A stretch of DNA of 13,007 bases from a virus, in the UHGV virus genome UHGV-0203085. One strand, written 5' to 3'. Position 1 is the first letter of the stretch; each line of letters opens with the position of its first letter. Positions 1-13,007 of this stretch are shown in pieces. Below the pieces are notes generated by a model. The model worked only from the letters and a program-made list of their open reading frames with translations, was not told where the DNA came from and made no database searches. The translations under genes and the position numbers were made by a program.

Positions 1-26
1 ATTATATCCATGTGTGCAAGTAAATT

Positions 27-529: not shown

Positions 530-572
530 ATCTCACCTCATATTCATCGCAGTTCGCACACCAGCTTTCCAC

Positions 573-827
573 TTACCTTTCTGAGTAAGTAGATAGCATA
601 TCTAAGATCGATACATCAGACTTCGGAGAATCGCATTTTAACGCTTCATGCGTCTGATTCTTGTATGAACGCGAGAGCAGCACTTCGTCAGCACGAGATT
701 TGTACTGCACACCAGCTTTCCACGCCCGCCACGCGAGACGCGTCTTAACGTTCAGGTACTCTTTCTTCGAACCCTTGTTAACCGGCAGACCCTCTACGAC
801 GGCCCAACGTTCAAATGCTTCTCTCAT
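573..827 (-). CDS. hypothetical protein, 84 aa
   Basis: ATG 825-827 (minus) with GGGG about 7 nt upstream; protein-like composition; the + ORF 661..864 is antisense to it. Confidence 0.5.
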   Translation of the reverse strand: MREAFERWAVVEGLPVNKGSKKEYLNVKTRLAWRAWKAGVQYKSRADEVLLSRSYKNQTHEALKCDSPKSDVSILDMLSTYSER

Positions 828-1288: not shown

Positions 1289-1492
1289 TTATCCACGGCA
1301 ACCTCCCTCAGAGTCGTCGGCACGAGCATCGTGGTTCGATGCCGTTCGTATGGAGCGCAGGAGTTTAACCAGCATCTCCGGTGATGATGTTGAAATTTCT
1401 TCACCATCAAGTGTGACAATCGCATATCGTTTAATTGTGAAATTAACTTTTATTAATCTATGATGTTTAAGTTCTTCAAATAATTCTTCCAT
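1289..1492 (-). CDS. hypothetical protein, about 67 aa
   Basis: ATG 1490-1492 (minus) with GGGG about 8 nt upstream; overlaps the TGA stop of the upstream gene (TGATG junction); the track ORF starts one codon earlier at GTG 1495. Confidence 0.4.
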   Translation of the reverse strand: MEELFEELKHHRLIKVNFTIKRYAIVTLDGEEISTSSPEMLVKLLRSIRTASNHDARADDSEGGCRG

Positions 1493-1689
1493 CACTTCGC
1501 CCCTTTGAATTTAAAATTGTTGCCGATGAGTTCTAAATATTCTGCGCTTACAGTTGCATGTCCACCAGTAAATACATTGCGAAGTTTACAAATAGAGGAA
1601 CTGCCTCTGTTGTTGGTGGAAAATACGGAGTACAAACATCCCGACTTTTTACTACGGACCAACTGACCCTTCTTAAACATAACCTTCAT
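1492..1689 (-). CDS. hypothetical small protein, 65 aa
   Basis: ATG 1687-1689 (minus), second in-frame ATG 9 nt downstream; first gene after promoter-like element D; N-terminal FKKGQLVRSKKSG resembles small KOW/DUF2158-like phage proteins (weak, from memory). Confidence 0.5.
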   Translation of the reverse strand: MKVMFKKGQLVRSKKSGCLYSVFSTNNRGSSSICKLRNVFTGGHATVSAEYLELIGNNFKFKGAK

Positions 1690-1707
1690 TCCTATGTCAC
1701 GTTTCGA

Positions 1708-1744
1708 TAAGTGAATAGTAACCTATTATGTTGGGGGCGTGCAA
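1708..1744 (-). promoter_or_regulatory. promoter-like element D (minus orientation): TTGCAC, 18 nt, TACTAT, then conserved TTCACTTA
   Basis: Minus-strand reading cTTGCACgcccccaacataataggtTACTATtcactta. It has 3 mismatches to the 28-bp core shared by elements A and B, and its downstream 21 bp (cgtttcgataagtgaatagta, plus 1700-1720) matches the window-end copy C with one mismatch. It lies about 20-50 nt upstream of the ATG at 1689. Confidence 0.4.
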
Positions 1745-2039
1745 GAGAATAGTTACGATGCCGTTGTGATTCTTTCGTTTAATGGGGTAGCGAGCGAAAC
1801 GAAACGAACGTGGTGCCGAAGGCACCAAGAGTGAGTGAGTGAGCTTGCGGTTCTAACCTGCGGCAAATCAGTAACTTAGATATTTTGGCGGGAATTACAA
1901 TAGACTTTGGGCCTCCCAAACGCGCCAGCGAGCCTCACTCCACACGCTACACGTGCTCGTTTCGCCTGCCGCGCGCCGCGGTCGCTTGTTCATACTTCAC
2001 AAGCTCAGGTGGAGCTTAGCATATTTTTAGTGAAAAGTC

Positions 2040-2055
2040 AACTATTCGAATAGTT
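2040..2055. promoter_or_regulatory. perfect 16-bp palindrome AACTATTCGAATAGTT (putative operator)
   Basis: Exact inverted repeat in the divergent region between elements D and A. Its half-site ACTATTC is the same heptamer found at the -10 region of elements A, B, C and D, and GAATAGTT recurs at 1747-1754. Confidence 0.4.
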
Positions 2056-2107: not shown

Positions 2108-2143
2108 TTGCACACCCCAATATAATAGGGTACTATTCAGTTA
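2108..2143 (+). promoter_or_regulatory. promoter-like element A: TTGCAC, 17 nt, TACTAT, then conserved TCAGTTA
   Basis: The 28-bp core ccaatataatagggtactattcagttaa is identical to element B. -35-like TTGCAC at 2108-2113, -10-like TACTAT at 2131-2136; an embedded TATAAT lies in the spacer. It is followed by AGGAGG and the ATG at 2162. Confidence 0.45.
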
Positions 2144-2161
2144 ACTTAAACAGGAGGGTGT

Positions 2162-2407
2162 ATGCAGGAGTTACCTAGTTTCGAACGTGAGTTCATTAGC
2201 GGTTTCATACCGGTTACTAATTTCAGTATACAGGATTTATTTGACTTAAGAGAAAACGGCAGACTTTGGGTGTGCAATGCCAAGGATGTTTCAAACGCTA
2301 GAGTATGGAACTTTAGTTTAATGCGCCGCCCGAACAAATCTGGTGAAGGTGCTGTTGGCATGGATTTGTTGCGGCGCAAAGGTAAGCTATTCATGAGAGT
2401 GCAGTAA
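2162..2407 (+). CDS. hypothetical protein, 81 aa (moron-like cassette A)
   Basis: ATG 2162 with AGGAGG 6 nt upstream; own promoter-like element upstream and an intrinsic terminator immediately downstream; opposite in orientation to the flanking minus-strand genes. Confidence 0.6.
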   Translation: MQELPSFEREFISGFIPVTNFSIQDLFDLRENGRLWVCNAKDVSNARVWNFSLMRRPNKSGEGAVGMDLLRRKGKLFMRVQ

Positions 2408-2411
2408 AACT

Positions 2412-2434
2412 AAGGCCCCGTTATGGGGCCTTTT
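2412..2434. terminator. bidirectional intrinsic terminator (stem AAGGCCCC / GGGGCCTT, loop GTTAT)
   Basis: 8-bp GC-rich stem at 2412-2419 and 2425-2432, followed by TTTT on the plus strand and by AGTTTTA on the minus strand. It sits between the stop of the + ORF (2407) and the stop of the minus ORF (2436). Confidence 0.6.
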
Positions 2435-2435
2435 A

Positions 2436-2897
2436 TCATTCTGGCTTCGTAACCTTCGCCGCTCTACTTACCACCTCTACACCATCGGCATCAGTAACTT
2501 TAACGAAGTATTCACCGACAGCATTAACCGTCAGAGAAAGAGTCTCTTCCGGGGCATTTACTACTTCCTTTCCGTCCTTGTACCAGGTCAGCACATACGG
2601 TGCTTTGCCTGCCTTAGCCTCGACAGTGATGATTGCGCTGCCGTCTGCCAGTTCCGTGTCTTTCGGTTGCACGGAGAAATACACGTCGCCCGCGTCCGCC
2701 AGATACGGAATTTCATAAAGCATACCCGCCGCCGGTAGTGCAATACCAGTTTTATCCGCAAACGGCATATCGTCTACTGGTGTACCGAGTACACTTTCAT
2801 CTTCAATAAATACCACATTCTCGCCGGAGCCAGACACGCGGGCGTACTGGACTACGCGACGCGACGGCACATCAGTTACTTTGAAAAATCCCATCAT
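2436..2897 (-). CDS. Ig-like (BIG-type) domain protein, 153 aa, probable virion-associated or decoration protein
   Basis: ATG 2895-2897 overlaps the TAA of the upstream head morphogenesis gene (TAATG coupling). C-terminal YVLTWYKDGKEVVNA...TLSLTVNAVGEYFVKVTDADG has the alternating pattern of an Ig-like beta sandwich. Confidence 0.6.
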   Translation of the reverse strand: MMGFFKVTDVPSRRVVQYARVSGSGENVVFIEDESVLGTPVDDMPFADKTGIALPAAGMLYEIPYLADAGDVYFSVQPKDTELADGSAIITVEAKAGKAPYVLTWYKDGKEVVNAPEETLSLTVNAVGEYFVKVTDADGVEVVSRAAKVTKPE

Positions 2898-4756
2898 TAT
2901 TCCCCTTTCAGATAATCAGCAACACGTTTATCGAGTTCCGCCATCTGCTTAAGTGTCAGCGGATTCCCGAAACCATCTACAGATATTACGCGAAACTCTT
3001 CCGGCGATATACCGCTGTTACGGAAAATCTTACCTCGCACCGGGCCGAGTGCTTCATCCACGAACCATGCCGGTTGTTGTTCAAGGAACTCGTAGTAAGT
3101 GGTGTCCGCGCTTACCTGAGTACCGCCGTCCGCACCCTTAGCTGCGCGTTTCGCTCCTTTATCGAGGAAGTCGAACTCTGAACTGATCACAGGCGCGGTT
3201 GTTGAGCGGCAGTTATGTGCTATAATTCCATTAGCAAGATACCAGTTCTGTTCATTTTCGAGGTTATAAACATGCCCGCAAAAATCAGCTTCACTAAAGA
3301 CCAAATCGACAACATCATCAAGCTCTACACCGACGGCATCGGACCAGTTGAAATCGGAAAGATTATCGGCGTTTCGTGTAGTCCAGTCATACGCGTTCTC
3401 AGAGAGAACGGCGTTACCATTCGCGGAGGCAGCGACGCTATGTTCATCCGAATGGCTAAAGCTACTCCCGAGGAGCGCCTCGCTCTCTCCGCCGCGGCGC
3501 ATGAAGCTGTCCGAGGGAGAAAGGCCGACCATGCTGAACTGCTTCGCAGAGCCAAAGCCAGGGAGGGAGTCATCAACGCCGGCAGTCACTGGGAGTTCCT
3601 TGTCAATGATTTGCTTATTCAGTCCGGACTTGACTTTATCCCAGGAAAGGCGGTCGACAAGTACAATCTCGACTTCGCCGTCGGTACCGTCGCCGTGGAA
3701 GTCTTCGGGGGAGGTTGGGCTTGTACTGACCGCCGCCGGATTGACCGTTACATTAGCCGCACTAAACAAATCGGAGAACTTGGCTACAACGTTGTGTTCC
3801 TTATGCTTGAGAGAGAGCGCAGAGTCCTTAGCGCACACGAGCTTGTCACCTACATTGAGAAGGCCGGAAGCAACCCAACCACTGGCGGTCAATACCTGGT
3901 GGTTTGGGGTGATAGACAAGGTGCGACCGGACTTTGTAGAGACATAGACTATAGTGCCTTTGTACGCCCGTTTAAAAATGTTAGAAACAGGGCTACCGGT
4001 AGATACTACAGTGTCCCCAAGTAAACAATTAGGGTGGGCCGGAGGCATCGGCCCTTTACCAATTTCCCACGTCATCCCGTCCCTGGCTCTGCAAATCGTA
4101 CTGGTACGACTATCAAGCGTTGACACCCACTCGTATTTCTCGATGATGTCGTCGTTCTGGCGGTACGTCTCGTTGCGGGCCTCGTTGGATACGTGAGCCA
4201 GCGCGGTGCGGATTACGGTAGCTGCATTACGTTCAGAGATGTCCGCCAGTCCACCAGCGCCTACGACATTCTTAACAATCTGCCGTGTCGTCTGGCCTTG
4301 GACAAAGCCCATCTTAACGCCGGTTACCAGGCGCGATACTTCTGTTTCACCCCAGCCCGACATCAGCTTAGTGAAGTCAACCGGCTTGTCGCTTAATGAT
4401 AAGGGTTGAAACTCGGCAGCGGCCCATACCTGTTCCGCGGTAGGCGTAATAAACTCGGCGTTAACGTTGGTGGCCAGCGTTTTTACGTTCCACTCTGCCT
4501 CATAAGCCGCCAGTTCTTTAAGGTCTTCTGTCAGTTTTGTTTGCCAGTCACCCGTAAGTCCCGCCAGTGCTTCTTCGAGGTCGCGTAACAGCTTATTTAG
4601 CCGCGCGGTACTACGACCGTCGTCGCCGAATAACAGCACCTGCCGTTTGATTTCGTCCCGCATCTCCTTAAGGAACGGCGCGAGGTCTTTCACTTCACCG
4701 GATGCGGTGCGTTGCAGCCATATCTGGTGGCTGATTAGAGATGTAAGTAAGCTCAT
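2897..4756 (-). CDS. head morphogenesis protein (Phage Mu F / SPP1 gp7-like) interrupted by an intein
   Basis: Long minus ORF; best start is ATG 4754-4756 with AGGAGGG 3-4 nt upstream (track ORF begins at TTG 4813 with no RBS). The N-extein ends ...WVSTLDSRTSTICRARDGMTWEIGKGPMPPAHPN, which I recall as the Mu F signature preceding HPNCRC. The gene lies directly downstream of the portal gene, as expected by synteny. Confidence 0.8.
   Translation of the reverse strand: MSLLTSLISHQIWLQRTASGEVKDLAPFLKEMRDEIKRQVLLFGDDGRSTARLNKLLRDLEEALAGLTGDWQTKLTEDLKELAAYEAEWNVKTLATNVNAEFITPTAEQVWAAAEFQPLSLSDKPVDFTKLMSGWGETEVSRLVTGVKMGFVQGQTTRQIVKNVVGAGGLADISERNAATVIRTALAHVSNEARNETYRQNDDIIEKYEWVSTLDSRTSTICRARDGMTWEIGKGPMPPAHPNCLLGDTVVSTGSPVSNIFKRAYKGTIVYVSTKSGRTLSITPNHQVLTASGWVASGLLNVGDKLVCAKDSALSLKHKEHNVVAKFSDLFSAANVTVNPAAVSTSPTSPEDFHGDGTDGEVEIVLVDRLSWDKVKSGLNKQIIDKELPVTAGVDDSLPGFGSAKQFSMVGLSPSDSFMRRGGESEALLGSSFSHSDEHSVAASANGNAVLSENAYDWTTRNADNLSDFNWSDAVGVELDDVVDLVFSEADFCGHVYNLENEQNWYLANGIIAHNCRSTTAPVISSEFDFLDKGAKRAAKGADGGTQVSADTTYYEFLEQQPAWFVDEALGPVRGKIFRNSGISPEEFRVISVDGFGNPLTLKQMAELDKRVADYLKGE
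3212..4027 (-). mobile_element. intein, 272 codons (Cys1 ... His-Asn, +1 Cys)
   Basis: In-frame insertion beginning CLLGDTVVS (block A; Cys codon = plus 4025-4027), with TLSITPNHQVLT (block B, T-x-x-H) and GWVASGLLNVGDKLV in the N-terminal Hint part. The C-terminal Hint part is ADFCGHVYNLENEQNWYLANGIIAHN, followed by +1 Cys (plus 3209-3211). The central region is S/A/D/G-rich with no LAGLIDADG, HNH or GIY-YIG motifs. Confidence 0.75.
3272..4024 (+). CDS. antisense-nested ORF, 250 aa: HTH plus DUF559/Vsr-like (PD-(D/E)xK-type) putative homing endonuclease
   Basis: ATG 3272 with GAGG about 8 nt upstream (an in-frame ATG at 3215 gives the 269-aa track ORF). N-terminal HTH-like IGPVEIGKIIGVSCSPVIRVLRENGV. 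Central block WEFLVNDLLIQSGLDF...YNLDFAVGTVAVEVFGGGW...RRRIDRYISRTKQIGELGYNVVFL matches the DUF559/Vsr pattern (D-F ... hEhDG.W ... R ... GY.V) as I remember it. The ORF is bounded by antisense stops at 3203-3205 and 4022-4024, so it spans the intein to within 2 codons. Confidence 0.55.
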   Translation: MPAKISFTKDQIDNIIKLYTDGIGPVEIGKIIGVSCSPVIRVLRENGVTIRGGSDAMFIRMAKATPEERLALSAAAHEAVRGRKADHAELLRRAKAREGVINAGSHWEFLVNDLLIQSGLDFIPGKAVDKYNLDFAVGTVAVEVFGGGWACTDRRRIDRYISRTKQIGELGYNVVFLMLERERRVLSAHELVTYIEKAGSNPTTGGQYLVVWGDRQGATGLCRDIDYSAFVRPFKNVRNRATGRYYSVPK

Positions 4757-4800: not shown

Positions 4801-4836
4801 TTGCAGACACCAATATAATAGGGTACTATTCAGTTA
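4801..4836 (+). promoter_or_regulatory. promoter-like element B: TTGCAG, 17 nt, TACTAT, then conserved TCAGTTA
   Basis: The 28-bp core (4809-4836) is identical to element A. It lies in the divergent intergenic region between the head morphogenesis start (4756, minus) and the + ORF at 4861. Confidence 0.45.
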
Positions 4837-4860
4837 AACGACAACGAGGAGGAAGAAAAC

Positions 4861-5016
4861 ATGATTAATGCTAAAGAAGAGTTGCTCGCCCATCTGGATG
4901 GTAAAGATGTAGTTAAATGCGCCTGGTTTGCAGATTATGACGCAGATTACGGTTTCGTTAAGGGAGTAAATGGCTCCTGCGGGAGAATTACTCTCGCGGA
5001 GAATGGGAAAGCCTAA
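4861..5016 (+). CDS. hypothetical small protein, 51 aa (moron-like cassette B, first ORF; not in track)
   Basis: ATG 4861 with AGGAGG 8 nt upstream; translation MINAKEELLAHLDGKDVVKCAWFADYDADYGFVKGVNGSCGRITLAENGKA; TAA 5014-5016 overlaps the next ATG (TAATG). Confidence 0.45.
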   Translation: MINAKEELLAHLDGKDVVKCAWFADYDADYGFVKGVNGSCGRITLAENGKA

Positions 5017-5180
5017 TGGCTGCGCTTGATTTTGAATATCACAACGGTTACGGCGGTCAAAACTTCTTCGGCGTAATTTGGTACGAAGATGGTACATGGT
5101 CTTCTCGCGGAGAATACGATGGTTCTGAATGGTGGGAATATAATGCCGTGCCAGATGTGCCAGGAGAACTTAAGCGCTAA
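5016..5180 (+). CDS. hypothetical small Gly/aromatic-rich protein, 54 aa (moron-like cassette B, second ORF; not in track)
   Basis: ATG 5016-5018 coupled to the upstream stop; translation MAALDFEYHNGYGGQNFFGVIWYEDGTWSSRGEYDGSEWWEYNAVPDVPGELKR; TAA 5178-5180 followed 4 nt later by a terminator hairpin. Confidence 0.45.
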   Translation: MAALDFEYHNGYGGQNFFGVIWYEDGTWSSRGEYDGSEWWEYNAVPDVPGELKR

Positions 5181-5184
5181 AATT

Positions 5185-5210
5185 AAGGCCCCTTTCGGGG
5201 CCTTTTCTTA
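5185..5210. terminator. bidirectional intrinsic terminator (stem AAGGCCCC / GGGGCCTT, loop TTTC)
   Basis: Same stem sequence as the terminator at 2412-2434. Followed by TTCTTA on the plus strand and by AATTTTA on the minus strand. It lies between the + cassette (stop 5180) and the portal stop (5208-5210). Confidence 0.6.
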
Positions 5211-10649: not shown

Positions 10650-10678
10650 AATATAATAGGGTCGTAGGTAATAGTCAA
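10650..10678 (-). promoter_or_regulatory. sigma70-like promoter (minus): TTGACT, 17 nt, TATATT
   Basis: Minus-strand -35 TTGACT (plus 10673-10678) and -10 TATATT (plus 10650-10655) with a 17-nt spacer; located between the terminator at 10700-10732 and the ATG at 10616. Confidence 0.4.
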
Positions 10679-10699
10679 CTAGTCATTGCAGAAAATAGA

Positions 10700-10732
10700 T
10701 AAAAAAAATCCCGGCTGGGTCAGGGCCGGGAT
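10700..10732 (-). terminator. strong intrinsic terminator for the lysis operon (8-bp stem ATCCCGGC / GCCGGGAT then eight U)
   Basis: Stem at 10708-10715 and 10725-10732 with a 9-nt loop; on the minus strand it is followed by TTTTTTTT (plus 10700-10707); 65 nt downstream of the lysozyme stop. Confidence 0.65.
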
Positions 10733-10796
10733 AAAACTGGAGAGCAGAGGGATGGAACAGGAGGTTATTTAAGTATCGTCGGATTAGTCTTAGGTG

Positions 10797-12408: not shown

Positions 12409-12848
12409 TGGAGTACAGCCTTGCGGTAGCGAACTATGTCATTATGCATACCATTGTGTCGCCAAAAGCAGACGCTAGCATCTCTTTTCGTGCCGTTAAT
12501 CTCGTTAGCGGGCAAGCCGTATATGGTTTCACCGTCGCGGTAAATCACATCGACAAGTGTTCCGCGAGGCACAGGGCAATATCCTCCTTGCCACTCAATC
12601 CAGCATGACTCCTGTGTATCGTCTTTACGGCGACTAGATTGCTCCTGTTCGCGCATAAGTTTGTACGCCTCCACATCACCGGTAGCTGTAGCCAGCGCCA
12701 GATGCAATTCCTTAATCTGCGCCGAAGCATCGCGTAACTGATTCTTAAGTGACTGCACCTCATGCGCCAGGTCTTCGCACTGGTTGTTACTGACCTGCTG
12801 CTGTAGTTGGTCAATCAGGTACTCAAATACTTCGTTTTTATTGTTCAT
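12405..12848 (-). CDS. hypothetical coiled-coil protein with Trp-rich C-terminal domain (possibly Ead/Ea22-like), 147 aa
   Basis: ATG 12846-12848; N-terminal heptad-like QQQVSNNQCEDLAHEVQSLKNQLRDASAQIKELHLALA; C-terminal WIEWQGGYCPVPRGTLVDVIYRDGETIYGLP...FWRHNG. Confidence 0.55.
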   Translation of the reverse strand: MNNKNEVFEYLIDQLQQQVSNNQCEDLAHEVQSLKNQLRDASAQIKELHLALATATGDVEAYKLMREQEQSSRRKDDTQESCWIEWQGGYCPVPRGTLVDVIYRDGETIYGLPANEINGTKRDASVCFWRHNGMHNDIVRYRKAVLQ

Positions 12849-12966
12849 ATTCTTCGCTCACTCCGTTATAGACGCCGTTGTAATCACCGTCGCAGATGAA
12901 CGGGTAGAGCATATCTTCGTACTCGTCCTGCAACTTACCCAAAGTTACTTCACTATAGTCTTTCAT
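12838..12966 (-). CDS. hypothetical acidic micro-protein, 42 aa (not in track)
   Basis: ATG 12964-12966 with GGAGAG 8-10 nt upstream; translation MKDYSEVTLGKLQDEYEDMLYPFICDGDYNGVYNGVSEEYEQ; first ORF downstream of element C; its stop overlaps the next gene start. Confidence 0.3.
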   Translation of the reverse strand: MKDYSEVTLGKLQDEYEDMLYPFICDGDYNGVYNGVSEEYEQ

Positions 12967-12990: not shown

Positions 12991-13007
12991 TAACTGAATA
13001 GTAGTCT
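12991..13007 (-). promoter_or_regulatory. promoter-like element C (minus orientation), truncated by the window edge
   Basis: Minus strand reads ...agacTACTATTCAGTTAtcgaaacg; the 13-bp core TACTATTCAGTTA is identical to elements A and B, and the 21 bp at plus 12983-13003 match element D (1700-1720) with one mismatch. The -35 region would lie beyond position 13007. Confidence 0.3.

Follow-up and report, generated by a model that had tools for sequence, protein, structure and literature searches.

A putative promoter-operator module ahead of early and accessory transcription units in Kagunavirus and Jerseyvirus phages

Operators and accessory cassettes in described phages

In lambdoid phages, the operators OR and OL, which are bound by Cro and CI, present a short dyad that overlaps the -10 hexamer or the spacer of sigma-70 promoters, and a small HTH_3 protein is encoded beside the divergent promoter pair bearing these sites. 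The operators of phage 434 are 14 bp long, with arms of 4-5 bp. The C1 operators of phage P1 and the gp71 stoperators of mycobacteriophage L5 are each one short site repeated at many promoters for coordinated control. Accessory genes, on the other hand, are carried by the morons of lambdoid phages and by the PeSL (promoter-plus-stem-loop) cassettes of T4-type phages, the latter reportedly the subject of Arbiol et al. 2010; in both, a small variable ORF stands between essential genes together with its promoter and terminator.

Here we describe a set of repeated elements in a window of 13,007 nt (the whole stretch of viral DNA that was analysed), which megablast assigns to Kagunavirus (Guernseyvirinae), a genus of E. 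coli siphoviruses. With moderate confidence, we interpret the four elements A to D in this window as copies of a promoter-operator module that stands ahead of early and accessory transcription units in both Kagunavirus and Jerseyvirus. So interpreted, the module would resemble the lambdoid and 434 operators in having a 14-bp dyad laid over the -10 hexamer or the spacer, and in the presence of an HTH_3 gene beside a divergent promoter pair with two sites. Unlike the lambdoid phages, however, Kagunavirus is virulent and has neither a CI partner nor an integrase, and instead of tripartite sites the module has single sites dispersed over about eight promoters genome-wide. In this respect it is closer to the P1 C1 operators and the L5 stoperators, although the sites of P1 and L5 are asymmetric and belong to temperate phages, whereas the module site is a dyad on the promoter cores of a virulent phage. 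Further, the L5 stoperators act within transcription units, while the module dyad is centred on promoter cores.

The two accessory cassettes headed by elements A and B are similar to morons and PeSL cassettes in their composition and their position between essential genes, and also in that they occur in some relatives only, with conserved borders. They differ in that their promoter would be the regulated early promoter of the phage itself instead of an independent one. A second difference from PeSL concerns border-bounded excised mini-circles, cassettes A and B being known here from their sequence.

The motif itself has been recorded before: phage Jersey has it annotated as promoters, and PHIRE recovered it in phage fBC-Eco01. 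The GenBank record of Jersey (NC_021777, regulatory features) lists the orthologous sites as sigma-70 promoters of the type TTGACA(N15-18)TATAAT; among these, 39893-39920 is the counterpart of element C, and 29238-29266 and 32925-32953 are dyad-bearing replication promoters. In fBC-Eco01, seven "phage RNAP promoters" found by PHIRE carry the same motif reverse-complemented (PMC9825357), and two of them, PP1 and PP2 (TGAATAGTACCCTATTATAT), correspond in reverse complement to elements B and A. That paper credits the sites to a phage RNA polymerase for which the genome has no gene, a published attribution that the present analysis corrects. Neither the Jersey record nor the fBC-Eco01 paper mentions the dyad, its registers, or a link to an HTH regulator, and we did not find the operator reading, the three registers, or the cassette frame in the Jerseyvirinae, Kagunavirus, and K1G promoter literature searched, where the fBC-Eco01 PHIRE table and a single coarse RNA-seq study were the only relevant data.

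The Guernseyvirinae (Kagunavirus and Jerseyvirus) are widely used in biocontrol of E. coli and Salmonella and are represented in the BASEL reference collection. For these phages, a module of about eight sites with a named candidate regulator amounts to a testable model of temporal control. The module also marks two hot spots of accessory-gene swapping, sites A and B, which are natural places to seek genes for anti-defence or exclusion, and at which payloads could safely be engineered.

The window and its four elements

Megablast finds several hundred relatives of the window among Escherichia and Salmonella phages, the closest being Escherichia phage vB_EcoS_GZMU_E2010 (PV845598), with 92% identity across 73% of the window. 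The genes lie mainly on the minus strand, in the order small early genes, holins and endolysin, terminase small and large subunits, portal (DUF4055), Mu-F-like head-morphogenesis protein, and Hoc-like protein. Early, lysis, terminase, portal, and MuF genes are thus present, and replication, capsid, and tail genes are absent. A search of the whole window against Rfam at gathering thresholds gave no matches. JGI metagenomes contain no exact match to the window, an exact-protein look-up was likewise negative, and only relatives turned up in IMG/VR, GenBank phages, PLSDB, and E. coli genomes.

The bases matching positions 13007 and 1 adjoin in PV845598 and in four IMG/VR contigs of 41-45 kb, and the 13-kb arc corresponds to PV845598 from 31397 to its end plus 1 to 777. 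The two copies of a 145-bp direct repeat in PV845598 lie at 634-777 and 31397-31539 and are 89% identical. As the end bases are adjacent in the relatives and the arc is closed via the 145-bp sequence, we treat the window as a closed circle, whether it is a deletion derivative (a defective mini-genome) or the product of an assembly path that ran through the repeat. Two consequences follow for the elements. Element C, which is split between the two ends, becomes complete once they are joined; and elements D and A are neighbours in the window because the circle closes at the 145-bp sequence between them. They are divergent neighbours only in this 13-kb molecule, and lie 13 kb or 31 kb apart in complete genomes. 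The coordinates of the elements and associated features are given in Table 1.

Table 1. Coordinates of the elements and associated features in the 13,007-nt window
Feature	Position	Strand	Description
Element C, 5' part	1..19	-	-35 TTGCAC 19-14 with most of the spacer; directly adjoins 13007 in all relatives
First gene 3' of D	1492..1689	-	65 aa, phrog_12538
Element D	1707..1744	-	-35 TTGCAC 1744-1739; 18-nt spacer; -10 TACTAT 1720-1715; dyad 1714-1727
145-bp sequence	1898..2041	.	Closure point of the 13-kb circle; two copies in complete genomes, one in the window
Element A	2108..2144	+	-35 TTGCAC 2108-2113; 17-nt spacer; -10 TACTAT 2131-2136; dyad AATAGGGTACTATT 2124-2137
Cassette A cargo gene	2162..2407	+	81 aa; without Pfam or PHROG family
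Cassette A terminator	2412..2432	.	AAGGCCCC-loop-GGGGCCTT and T run; scored on both strands
Element B	4801..4837	+	-35 TTGCAG 4801-4806; 17-nt spacer; -10 TACTAT 4824-4829; dyad 4817-4830
Cassette B cargo	4861..5180	+	Overlapping ORFs 4861-5016 and 5016-5180, joined by TAATG
Cassette B terminator	5185..5204	.	Same sequence family as cassette A terminator
Related sigma-70-like promoter	10650..10678	-	TTGACT-17-TATATT; only the CTATT half of the dyad; third copy of ATATAATAGGG
First gene 3' of C	12838..12966	-	42 aa, phrog_35344
Element C, 3' part	12991..13007	-	-10 TACTAT 13003-12998, then TCAGTTA; dyad spans the window join

The original prediction described A and B as sharing an identical 28-bp core, and this holds exactly: CCAATATAATAGGGTACTATTCAGTTAA occurs twice, at 2117-2144 and 4810-4837 on the plus strand, with 0 expected from 200 shuffles. 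The cores are preceded by TTGCAC in A and by TTGCAG in B, as had been stated, and the ends first assigned to the two elements fall one base short. Element D is a real diverged copy, although it has four mismatches in the gapless 28-bp core and not the three first counted. Element C is indeed cut by the window edge, with TACTATTCAGTTA at 12991-13003 on the minus strand; a search with this sequence returned four sites with at most two mismatches, compared with 0.21 expected. Read across the join 13007|1, C becomes TTGCAC-ACATGGATATAATAGAC-TACTAT. The 21-bp match claimed between C and D is present as TACTATTCA-x-TTATCGAAACG, with identity at 20 of the 21 positions. The elements also precede a ribosome-binding site on the matching strand, as had been noted, with the -10 hexamer starting 21-25 nt before the Shine-Dalgarno sequence (a gap of 15-19 nt), which is followed by the start codon. 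Lastly, the words TATAAT and AATAGGG attributed to the spacer are found in A and B, whereas D has CATAAT and AATAGGT and C has TATAAT and AATAGAC.

Inside the 145-bp repeat, a leftward promoter TTGACT-17-TAAGCT (2008-2041, minus strand) is abutted at its -35 by a perfect 16-bp palindrome, AACTATTCGAATAGTT, at 2040-2055, in which the words AATAG and CTATT appear in reverse order; this promoter is HP1 in fBC-Eco01. We considered a small RNA transcribed from this promoter (about 2001 to 1800, minus strand) and rejected it, its folding being no better than that of shuffled sequences (z = -0.07).

Promoter, dyad, and candidate binder across related genomes

When three complete Kagunavirus genomes were scanned with a position-weight matrix, each proved to have four strong copies, whose genomic positions are fixed; complete relatives carry 4-5 copies of the module. 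Altogether, about 65 copies in related genomes (complete genomes and IMG/VR loci) fall into five positional classes, and every one of them lies upstream of, and faces, the first gene of a transcription unit, in agreement with the orientation originally proposed. Class 1 (element D) precedes small early genes, and class 2 (element C) precedes the early genes through endolysin. Class 3, without an element in the window, precedes an exonuclease operon opposing the tail genes. Class 4 (element A) precedes an accessory cassette, and class 5 (element B) a second accessory cassette found in some genomes only. A sixth, weaker relative lies upstream of a lone 71-aa HTH gene, where AATATGGTACTATTCA is kept without a -35 hexamer and with an extended -10 (TGgTACTAT). 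Element A has orthologous copies in four loci (L002, L003, L004, and L125), and the promoter region of B matches 41 GenBank phage records. Two variants may be decaying copies: in locus L123 (IMG/VR 3300018471_000014) a CA-repeat expansion, ACACACACAC, stretches the spacer of the class-2 promoter to about 23 nt, and in locus L049 the -35 (TTACAG), the -10 (TACCAT), and the dyad arm of the class-4 copy are all mutated.

The placement of these copies and the constancy of their hexamers support the promoter part of the original prediction as far as comparison can; its phage-polymerase or sigma-factor part is not supported. Constant across paralogues, orthologues, and the two genera are TTG, TAnnnT, and a spacing of 17-18 bp, with TACTAT as the -10 in A-D and the roughly 65 related copies and TATAGT, TATATT, or TATTAT in other registers. 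Positions 4-6 of the -35 vary (TTGCAC, TTGCAG, TTGCGC, TTGCAT, and TTGACA), and the Jersey copy of C reads TTGACA-18-TACTAT. Since TTGCAC matches TTGACA at only three of six positions, TTGCAC-17-TACTAT scores 7/12 relative to the consensus; it is below the threshold of a consensus promoter scan, which misses it. By simple hexamer counting, opposite-strand pairs are equal or better at A, B, and the class-3 copy, and orientation was therefore taken from gene context and from the hexamers conserved between paralogues. On the strand opposite B, the consensus scan reports TTGTCG-18-TATTAT (4844..4815), a predicted promoter facing the MuF gene start at 4756.

Several other assignments were tried and set aside. 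Taking the best hexamers at each dyad produced spurious opposite-strand pairs for the TTGCAC class and was unusable for orientation. The spacer TATAAT as the true -10 has no conserved -35 at 16-18 bp upstream in any class. Promoters of the sigma-32, sigma-54, sigma-28, and sigma-E types and the T4 MotA box do not fit in spacing or sequence (compared by eye with the consensus sequences), nor do the sites of the host regulators ArgR (ArgR box), CRP, LexA, and Fur.

In the mechanism that we propose, host RNA polymerase with sigma-70 would read TTGCAC as the -35 and TACTAT as the -10 across the 17/18-bp spacer, and would start about 7 nt 3' of TACTAT (predicted at about 2143 for element A); the resulting leaders, 18-25 nt long, would run into the strong ribosome-binding site.

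The original prediction regarded the spacer as unusually conserved. This is true of its -10-proximal half, while the 4-8 nt next to the -35 vary freely in the orthologues of element C. What stays invariant in the spacer is AATAG, and CTATT inside TACTATT completes a dyad, AATAG-N4-CTATT. This dyad occurs seven times in the relative Bas70 (43 kb), compared with 0.04 expected, five times in Jerseyvirus skrot (0.03 expected), and three times in the window, or four when C is counted across the join. In an unbiased count of 5-mer dyads, it ranks first in Bas70 and Jersey, and not in the more distant Salmonella phage SE1 and Serratia phage Eta. As in operator sites of the Cro/CI type, it is thus found far above chance with all copies at promoters. 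Of 30 distinct class-2 sequences, 29 retain AATAG and 28 retain CTATT, the orthologues of C and D having been gathered by their upstream flank only.

The position of the dyad relative to the hexamers is not fixed. In the TTGCAC-type promoters it lies at -20 to -7. Three of the seven Bas70 dyads, however, are in near-consensus promoters (TTGACA/TTGACG, 17 nt, TATAGT) before replication/recombination genes, where TGAATAGTnnnCTATTATA, the wider motif, has an inverted orientation with respect to transcription and the dyad lies at -25 to -12. In the class-3 promoter of Jersey (TTGCAT-17-TATTAT) it is shifted by 3 bp compared with the Kagunavirus orthologue. The N4 centres also differ (GGTA, GATA, GCTA, ACTA, TTCG, CGAA, CTAA, TGTT, and AGTA) while the arms are fixed; the flanks TAT (left) and CA (right) are conserved but asymmetric.

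Because the dyad is fixed, slides relative to the hexamers, and tolerates any centre, it points to an operator and not to a polymerase contact, and an embedded dyad acting as operator is the best supported explanation of the conserved spacer. Among the explanations of the spacer originally put forward, a repressor covering the -10 region likewise has the best support, given that the dyad recurs at other promoters and in other registers. As the arms are only 5 bp long and the right arm overlaps the -10, part of the invariance could nevertheless be driven by the polymerase. According to this model, the conserved part of the spacer would be the left arm of a 14-bp dyad, unread by the polymerase, and the right arm would lie inside the -10. 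A dimeric phage DNA-binding protein on the dyad would block the polymerase, and early, accessory, and replication promoters would consequently all be turned down together. More tentatively, it is possible that in this virulent siphovirus family the whole pre-late programme is under one Cro-like repressor, with a 14-bp operator in at least three registers, and that the pair of promoter-operator and terminator forms a portable frame in which co-infecting phages exchange accessory (host-interaction) genes under a common switch.

The best candidate for the dyad-bound protein is the 71-aa HTH_3 protein of complete relatives; a near-copy of the dyad is found in the promoter of its gene. This Cro/CI-type protein (71-72 aa; HTH_3, E = 3.9e-13) is encoded in all Kagunavirus and Jerseyvirus genomes, by a gene that is transcribed alone and opposes the replication genes. 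Of the two dyads in the intergenic region, which are separated by about 44 bp, one is in the gene's own promoter and the other in the divergent replication promoter. The link between protein and site is putative. The alternative candidate is a 60-aa HTH_17 (excisionase-like) protein; both genes are outside the 13-kb window. A comparison for co-variation of regulator and operator did not discriminate, because the regulators of Kagunavirus, Jerseyvirus, and SE1 resemble each other too closely in their recognition helices; SE1 has a related regulator and degenerate dyads only. RNA-seq of the Kagunavirus vB_Eco_K1B4, which resolves timing at the gene level only, listed only four early genes, one of them an HTH-domain gene, and assigned a "specific DNA binding" gene to the middle group. 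Judging by gene order, the early gene is probably HTH_17 and the middle-period gene HTH_3. As the HTH_3 gene would then peak in the middle period and the HTH-domain gene early, the binder could be another protein than HTH_3.

Accessory cassettes, alternative explanations, and further features of the window

Elements A and B form the 5' ends of self-contained, moron-like cassettes, each consisting of the promoter, a variable small gene, and a conserved bidirectional terminator formed by a GC-rich hairpin and a T run, on the plus strand and opposing the minus-strand head-gene operon. As with morons and PeSL cassettes, each has its own promoter, ORF, and terminator, and is variable in presence and cargo. 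The terminator of cassette A is shared with the convergent Hoc-like gene, and cassette B separates the MuF gene from the portal gene. In cassette B, the second ORF matches phrog_3972 (unknown function) at profile positions 40-92 of 113, and the first ORF has no match; the cargo may be one frameshift-split gene or a coupled pair. No Pfam families were found in the cassette cargo proteins of the window. The window's cassette B cargo occurs in one IMG/VR contig and in no GenBank phage, and the B cassette as a whole is absent from PV845598, NTEC3, and Bas70.

At least five unrelated cargo genes are found at site A, and at least five at site B, with the same promoter and terminator. The proteins encoded at site A in relatives are 33, 57, 67, 81, and 179 aa long, and those at site B are 52, 71, 94, and 173 aa long, in addition to the 51 + 54 aa pair of the window. 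The first gene after class 3 also differs, encoding either a membrane protein of 63 aa or a secreted protein of 108 aa. The terminator family AAGGCCCC-N4-GGGGCCTT (2405-2437 and 5178-5210 in the window) is used by relatives at other convergent junctions as well, for example helicase/tailspike and major tail/exonuclease operon.

The likeness between copies exceeds the dyad, with ACCCCAAyAT, the leader, and the ribosome-binding site common to classes 1, 3, 4, and 5, and at one replication promoter the promoter-leader region is conserved whole between genera. Together with the movement of cassettes as units, this would be expected if the elements were plain host sigma-70 promoters without a dedicated regulator, duplicated as promoter-leader modules and homogenised by recombination between copies or between co-infecting phages. 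We consider this unlikely, as it does not explain why the same 5+5-bp arms occur in promoters of another architecture, in three registers, inverted, and with variable centres, or why the arms stay fixed beside varying spacer bases. Recombination might instead be the main role of the repeats, which would then be homology blocks for accessory-gene swaps, like the PeSL cassettes of T4-type phages, with transcription being secondary. That the cargo at sites A and B differs by phage between an invariant promoter and terminator, and that terminators of the same family stand at other convergent junctions, is in line with such a role. Classes 1 and 2 and the replication promoters, however, keep the module or the dyad and border no cassette, making this very improbable as the main function, and a role as homology blocks would in any case be compatible with the promoter-operator reading.

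Two further explanations invoke a phage factor in transcription itself. An activator or sigma-remodelling factor, as at the middle promoters of T4, might read the spacer and offset the weak -35, which is poor relative to the consensus and yet strictly conserved as TTGCAC(A/G)C in a module of only 7/12; the relatives do encode two small HTH proteins. An activator had also been among the original proposals, and is unlikely given that conservation extends over the -10 hexamer or the spacer: at -20 to -7 or -25 to -12, the dyad occupies positions without known activators. MerR-type promoters have spacers of 19-20 nt, compared with 17-18 nt here, and the near-consensus replication promoters, which need no help, bear the same dyad. 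Unlike at the MotA-dependent middle promoters of T4, a hexamer is found at the canonical -35 distance instead of a MotA box at -30, and a Pfam search of the 47 unassigned proteins of Bas70 found no MotA/AsiA-like domains. Taken together, we give an activator or remodelling factor a slim chance. The other explanation, stated in the fBC-Eco01 paper and also raised originally, is that these are promoters of a phage-encoded RNA polymerase or sigma factor. The PHIRE motif labelled as phage RNA polymerase promoters (tgAATAGTa-ccTATTat-T) does occur seven times in fBC-Eco01, and the conserved block of about 20-30 bp is similar in length to T7-type promoters. Nevertheless, the motif contains sigma-70-like -35 and -10 hexamers at canonical spacing, and at the replication promoters the motif is inverted relative to the genes. 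The complete relatives have no RNA polymerase or sigma domain: none was found by Pfam in the 47 unassigned Bas70 proteins, where the only DNA-binding matches are HTH_3, HTH_17, and NinH, and no polymerase or sigma gene is annotated in four complete relatives (the window's own genome being incomplete). In the complete relatives, all proteins longer than 600 aa have an assigned function (tape measure, tail protein, tail spike, DNA polymerase, or helicase-primase), which leaves no place for a single-subunit polymerase. We therefore regard this explanation as close to refuted. The promoter-operator reading is the one that we retain for elements A-D.

Other features of the window were observed in the course of this analysis. 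The related promoter at 10650..10678 is annotated as a promoter in Jersey (42343-42371). Just upstream of it, and 3' of the endolysin gene, is a terminator consisting of CCCGGC, a 9-nt loop, GCCGGG, and T8, which the scan missed; promoter and terminator lie within 10650-10735 (minus strand). This promoter and the endolysin-side terminator separate the transcription unit of element C from the terminase/head unit.

The MuF gene (2897-4756, minus strand) contains an intein at 3211-4024, and a 269-aa ORF (3215-4024, plus strand) with an HTH and a Vsr-like endonuclease spans this intein exactly, in antisense. Relative to PV845598, substitutions at codon positions 1/2/3 number 7/2/15 in the plus-strand ORF versus 15/2/7 in the minus-strand frame, a third-position bias that favours the 269-aa ORF as the probable coding frame. 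Full-length homologues of this ORF have 27-52% identity, and some are named very-short-patch-repair endonuclease; the homologue in a marine phage contig (L132) is also antisense inside an Intein_splicing ORF. Antisense VSR-like homing endonucleases have been described in full inteins of actinophage minor capsid proteins (2025 preprint; bioRxiv 10.1101/2025.01.02.630785), and phage Snoke has an intein in its MuF gene (PMC6776784). A MuF intein with an antisense ORF would extend the actinophage architecture to coliphages.

Elsewhere, 144 bp of the window (565-708, inside the minus-strand ORF 573-827) have 96-97% identity to an unannotated stretch of small plasmids (2.9-4.6 kb) of E. coli, Salmonella, Citrobacter, and Klebsiella. 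This stretch is absent from the closest phage relative, and looks like a mosaic exchange between phage and small plasmids.
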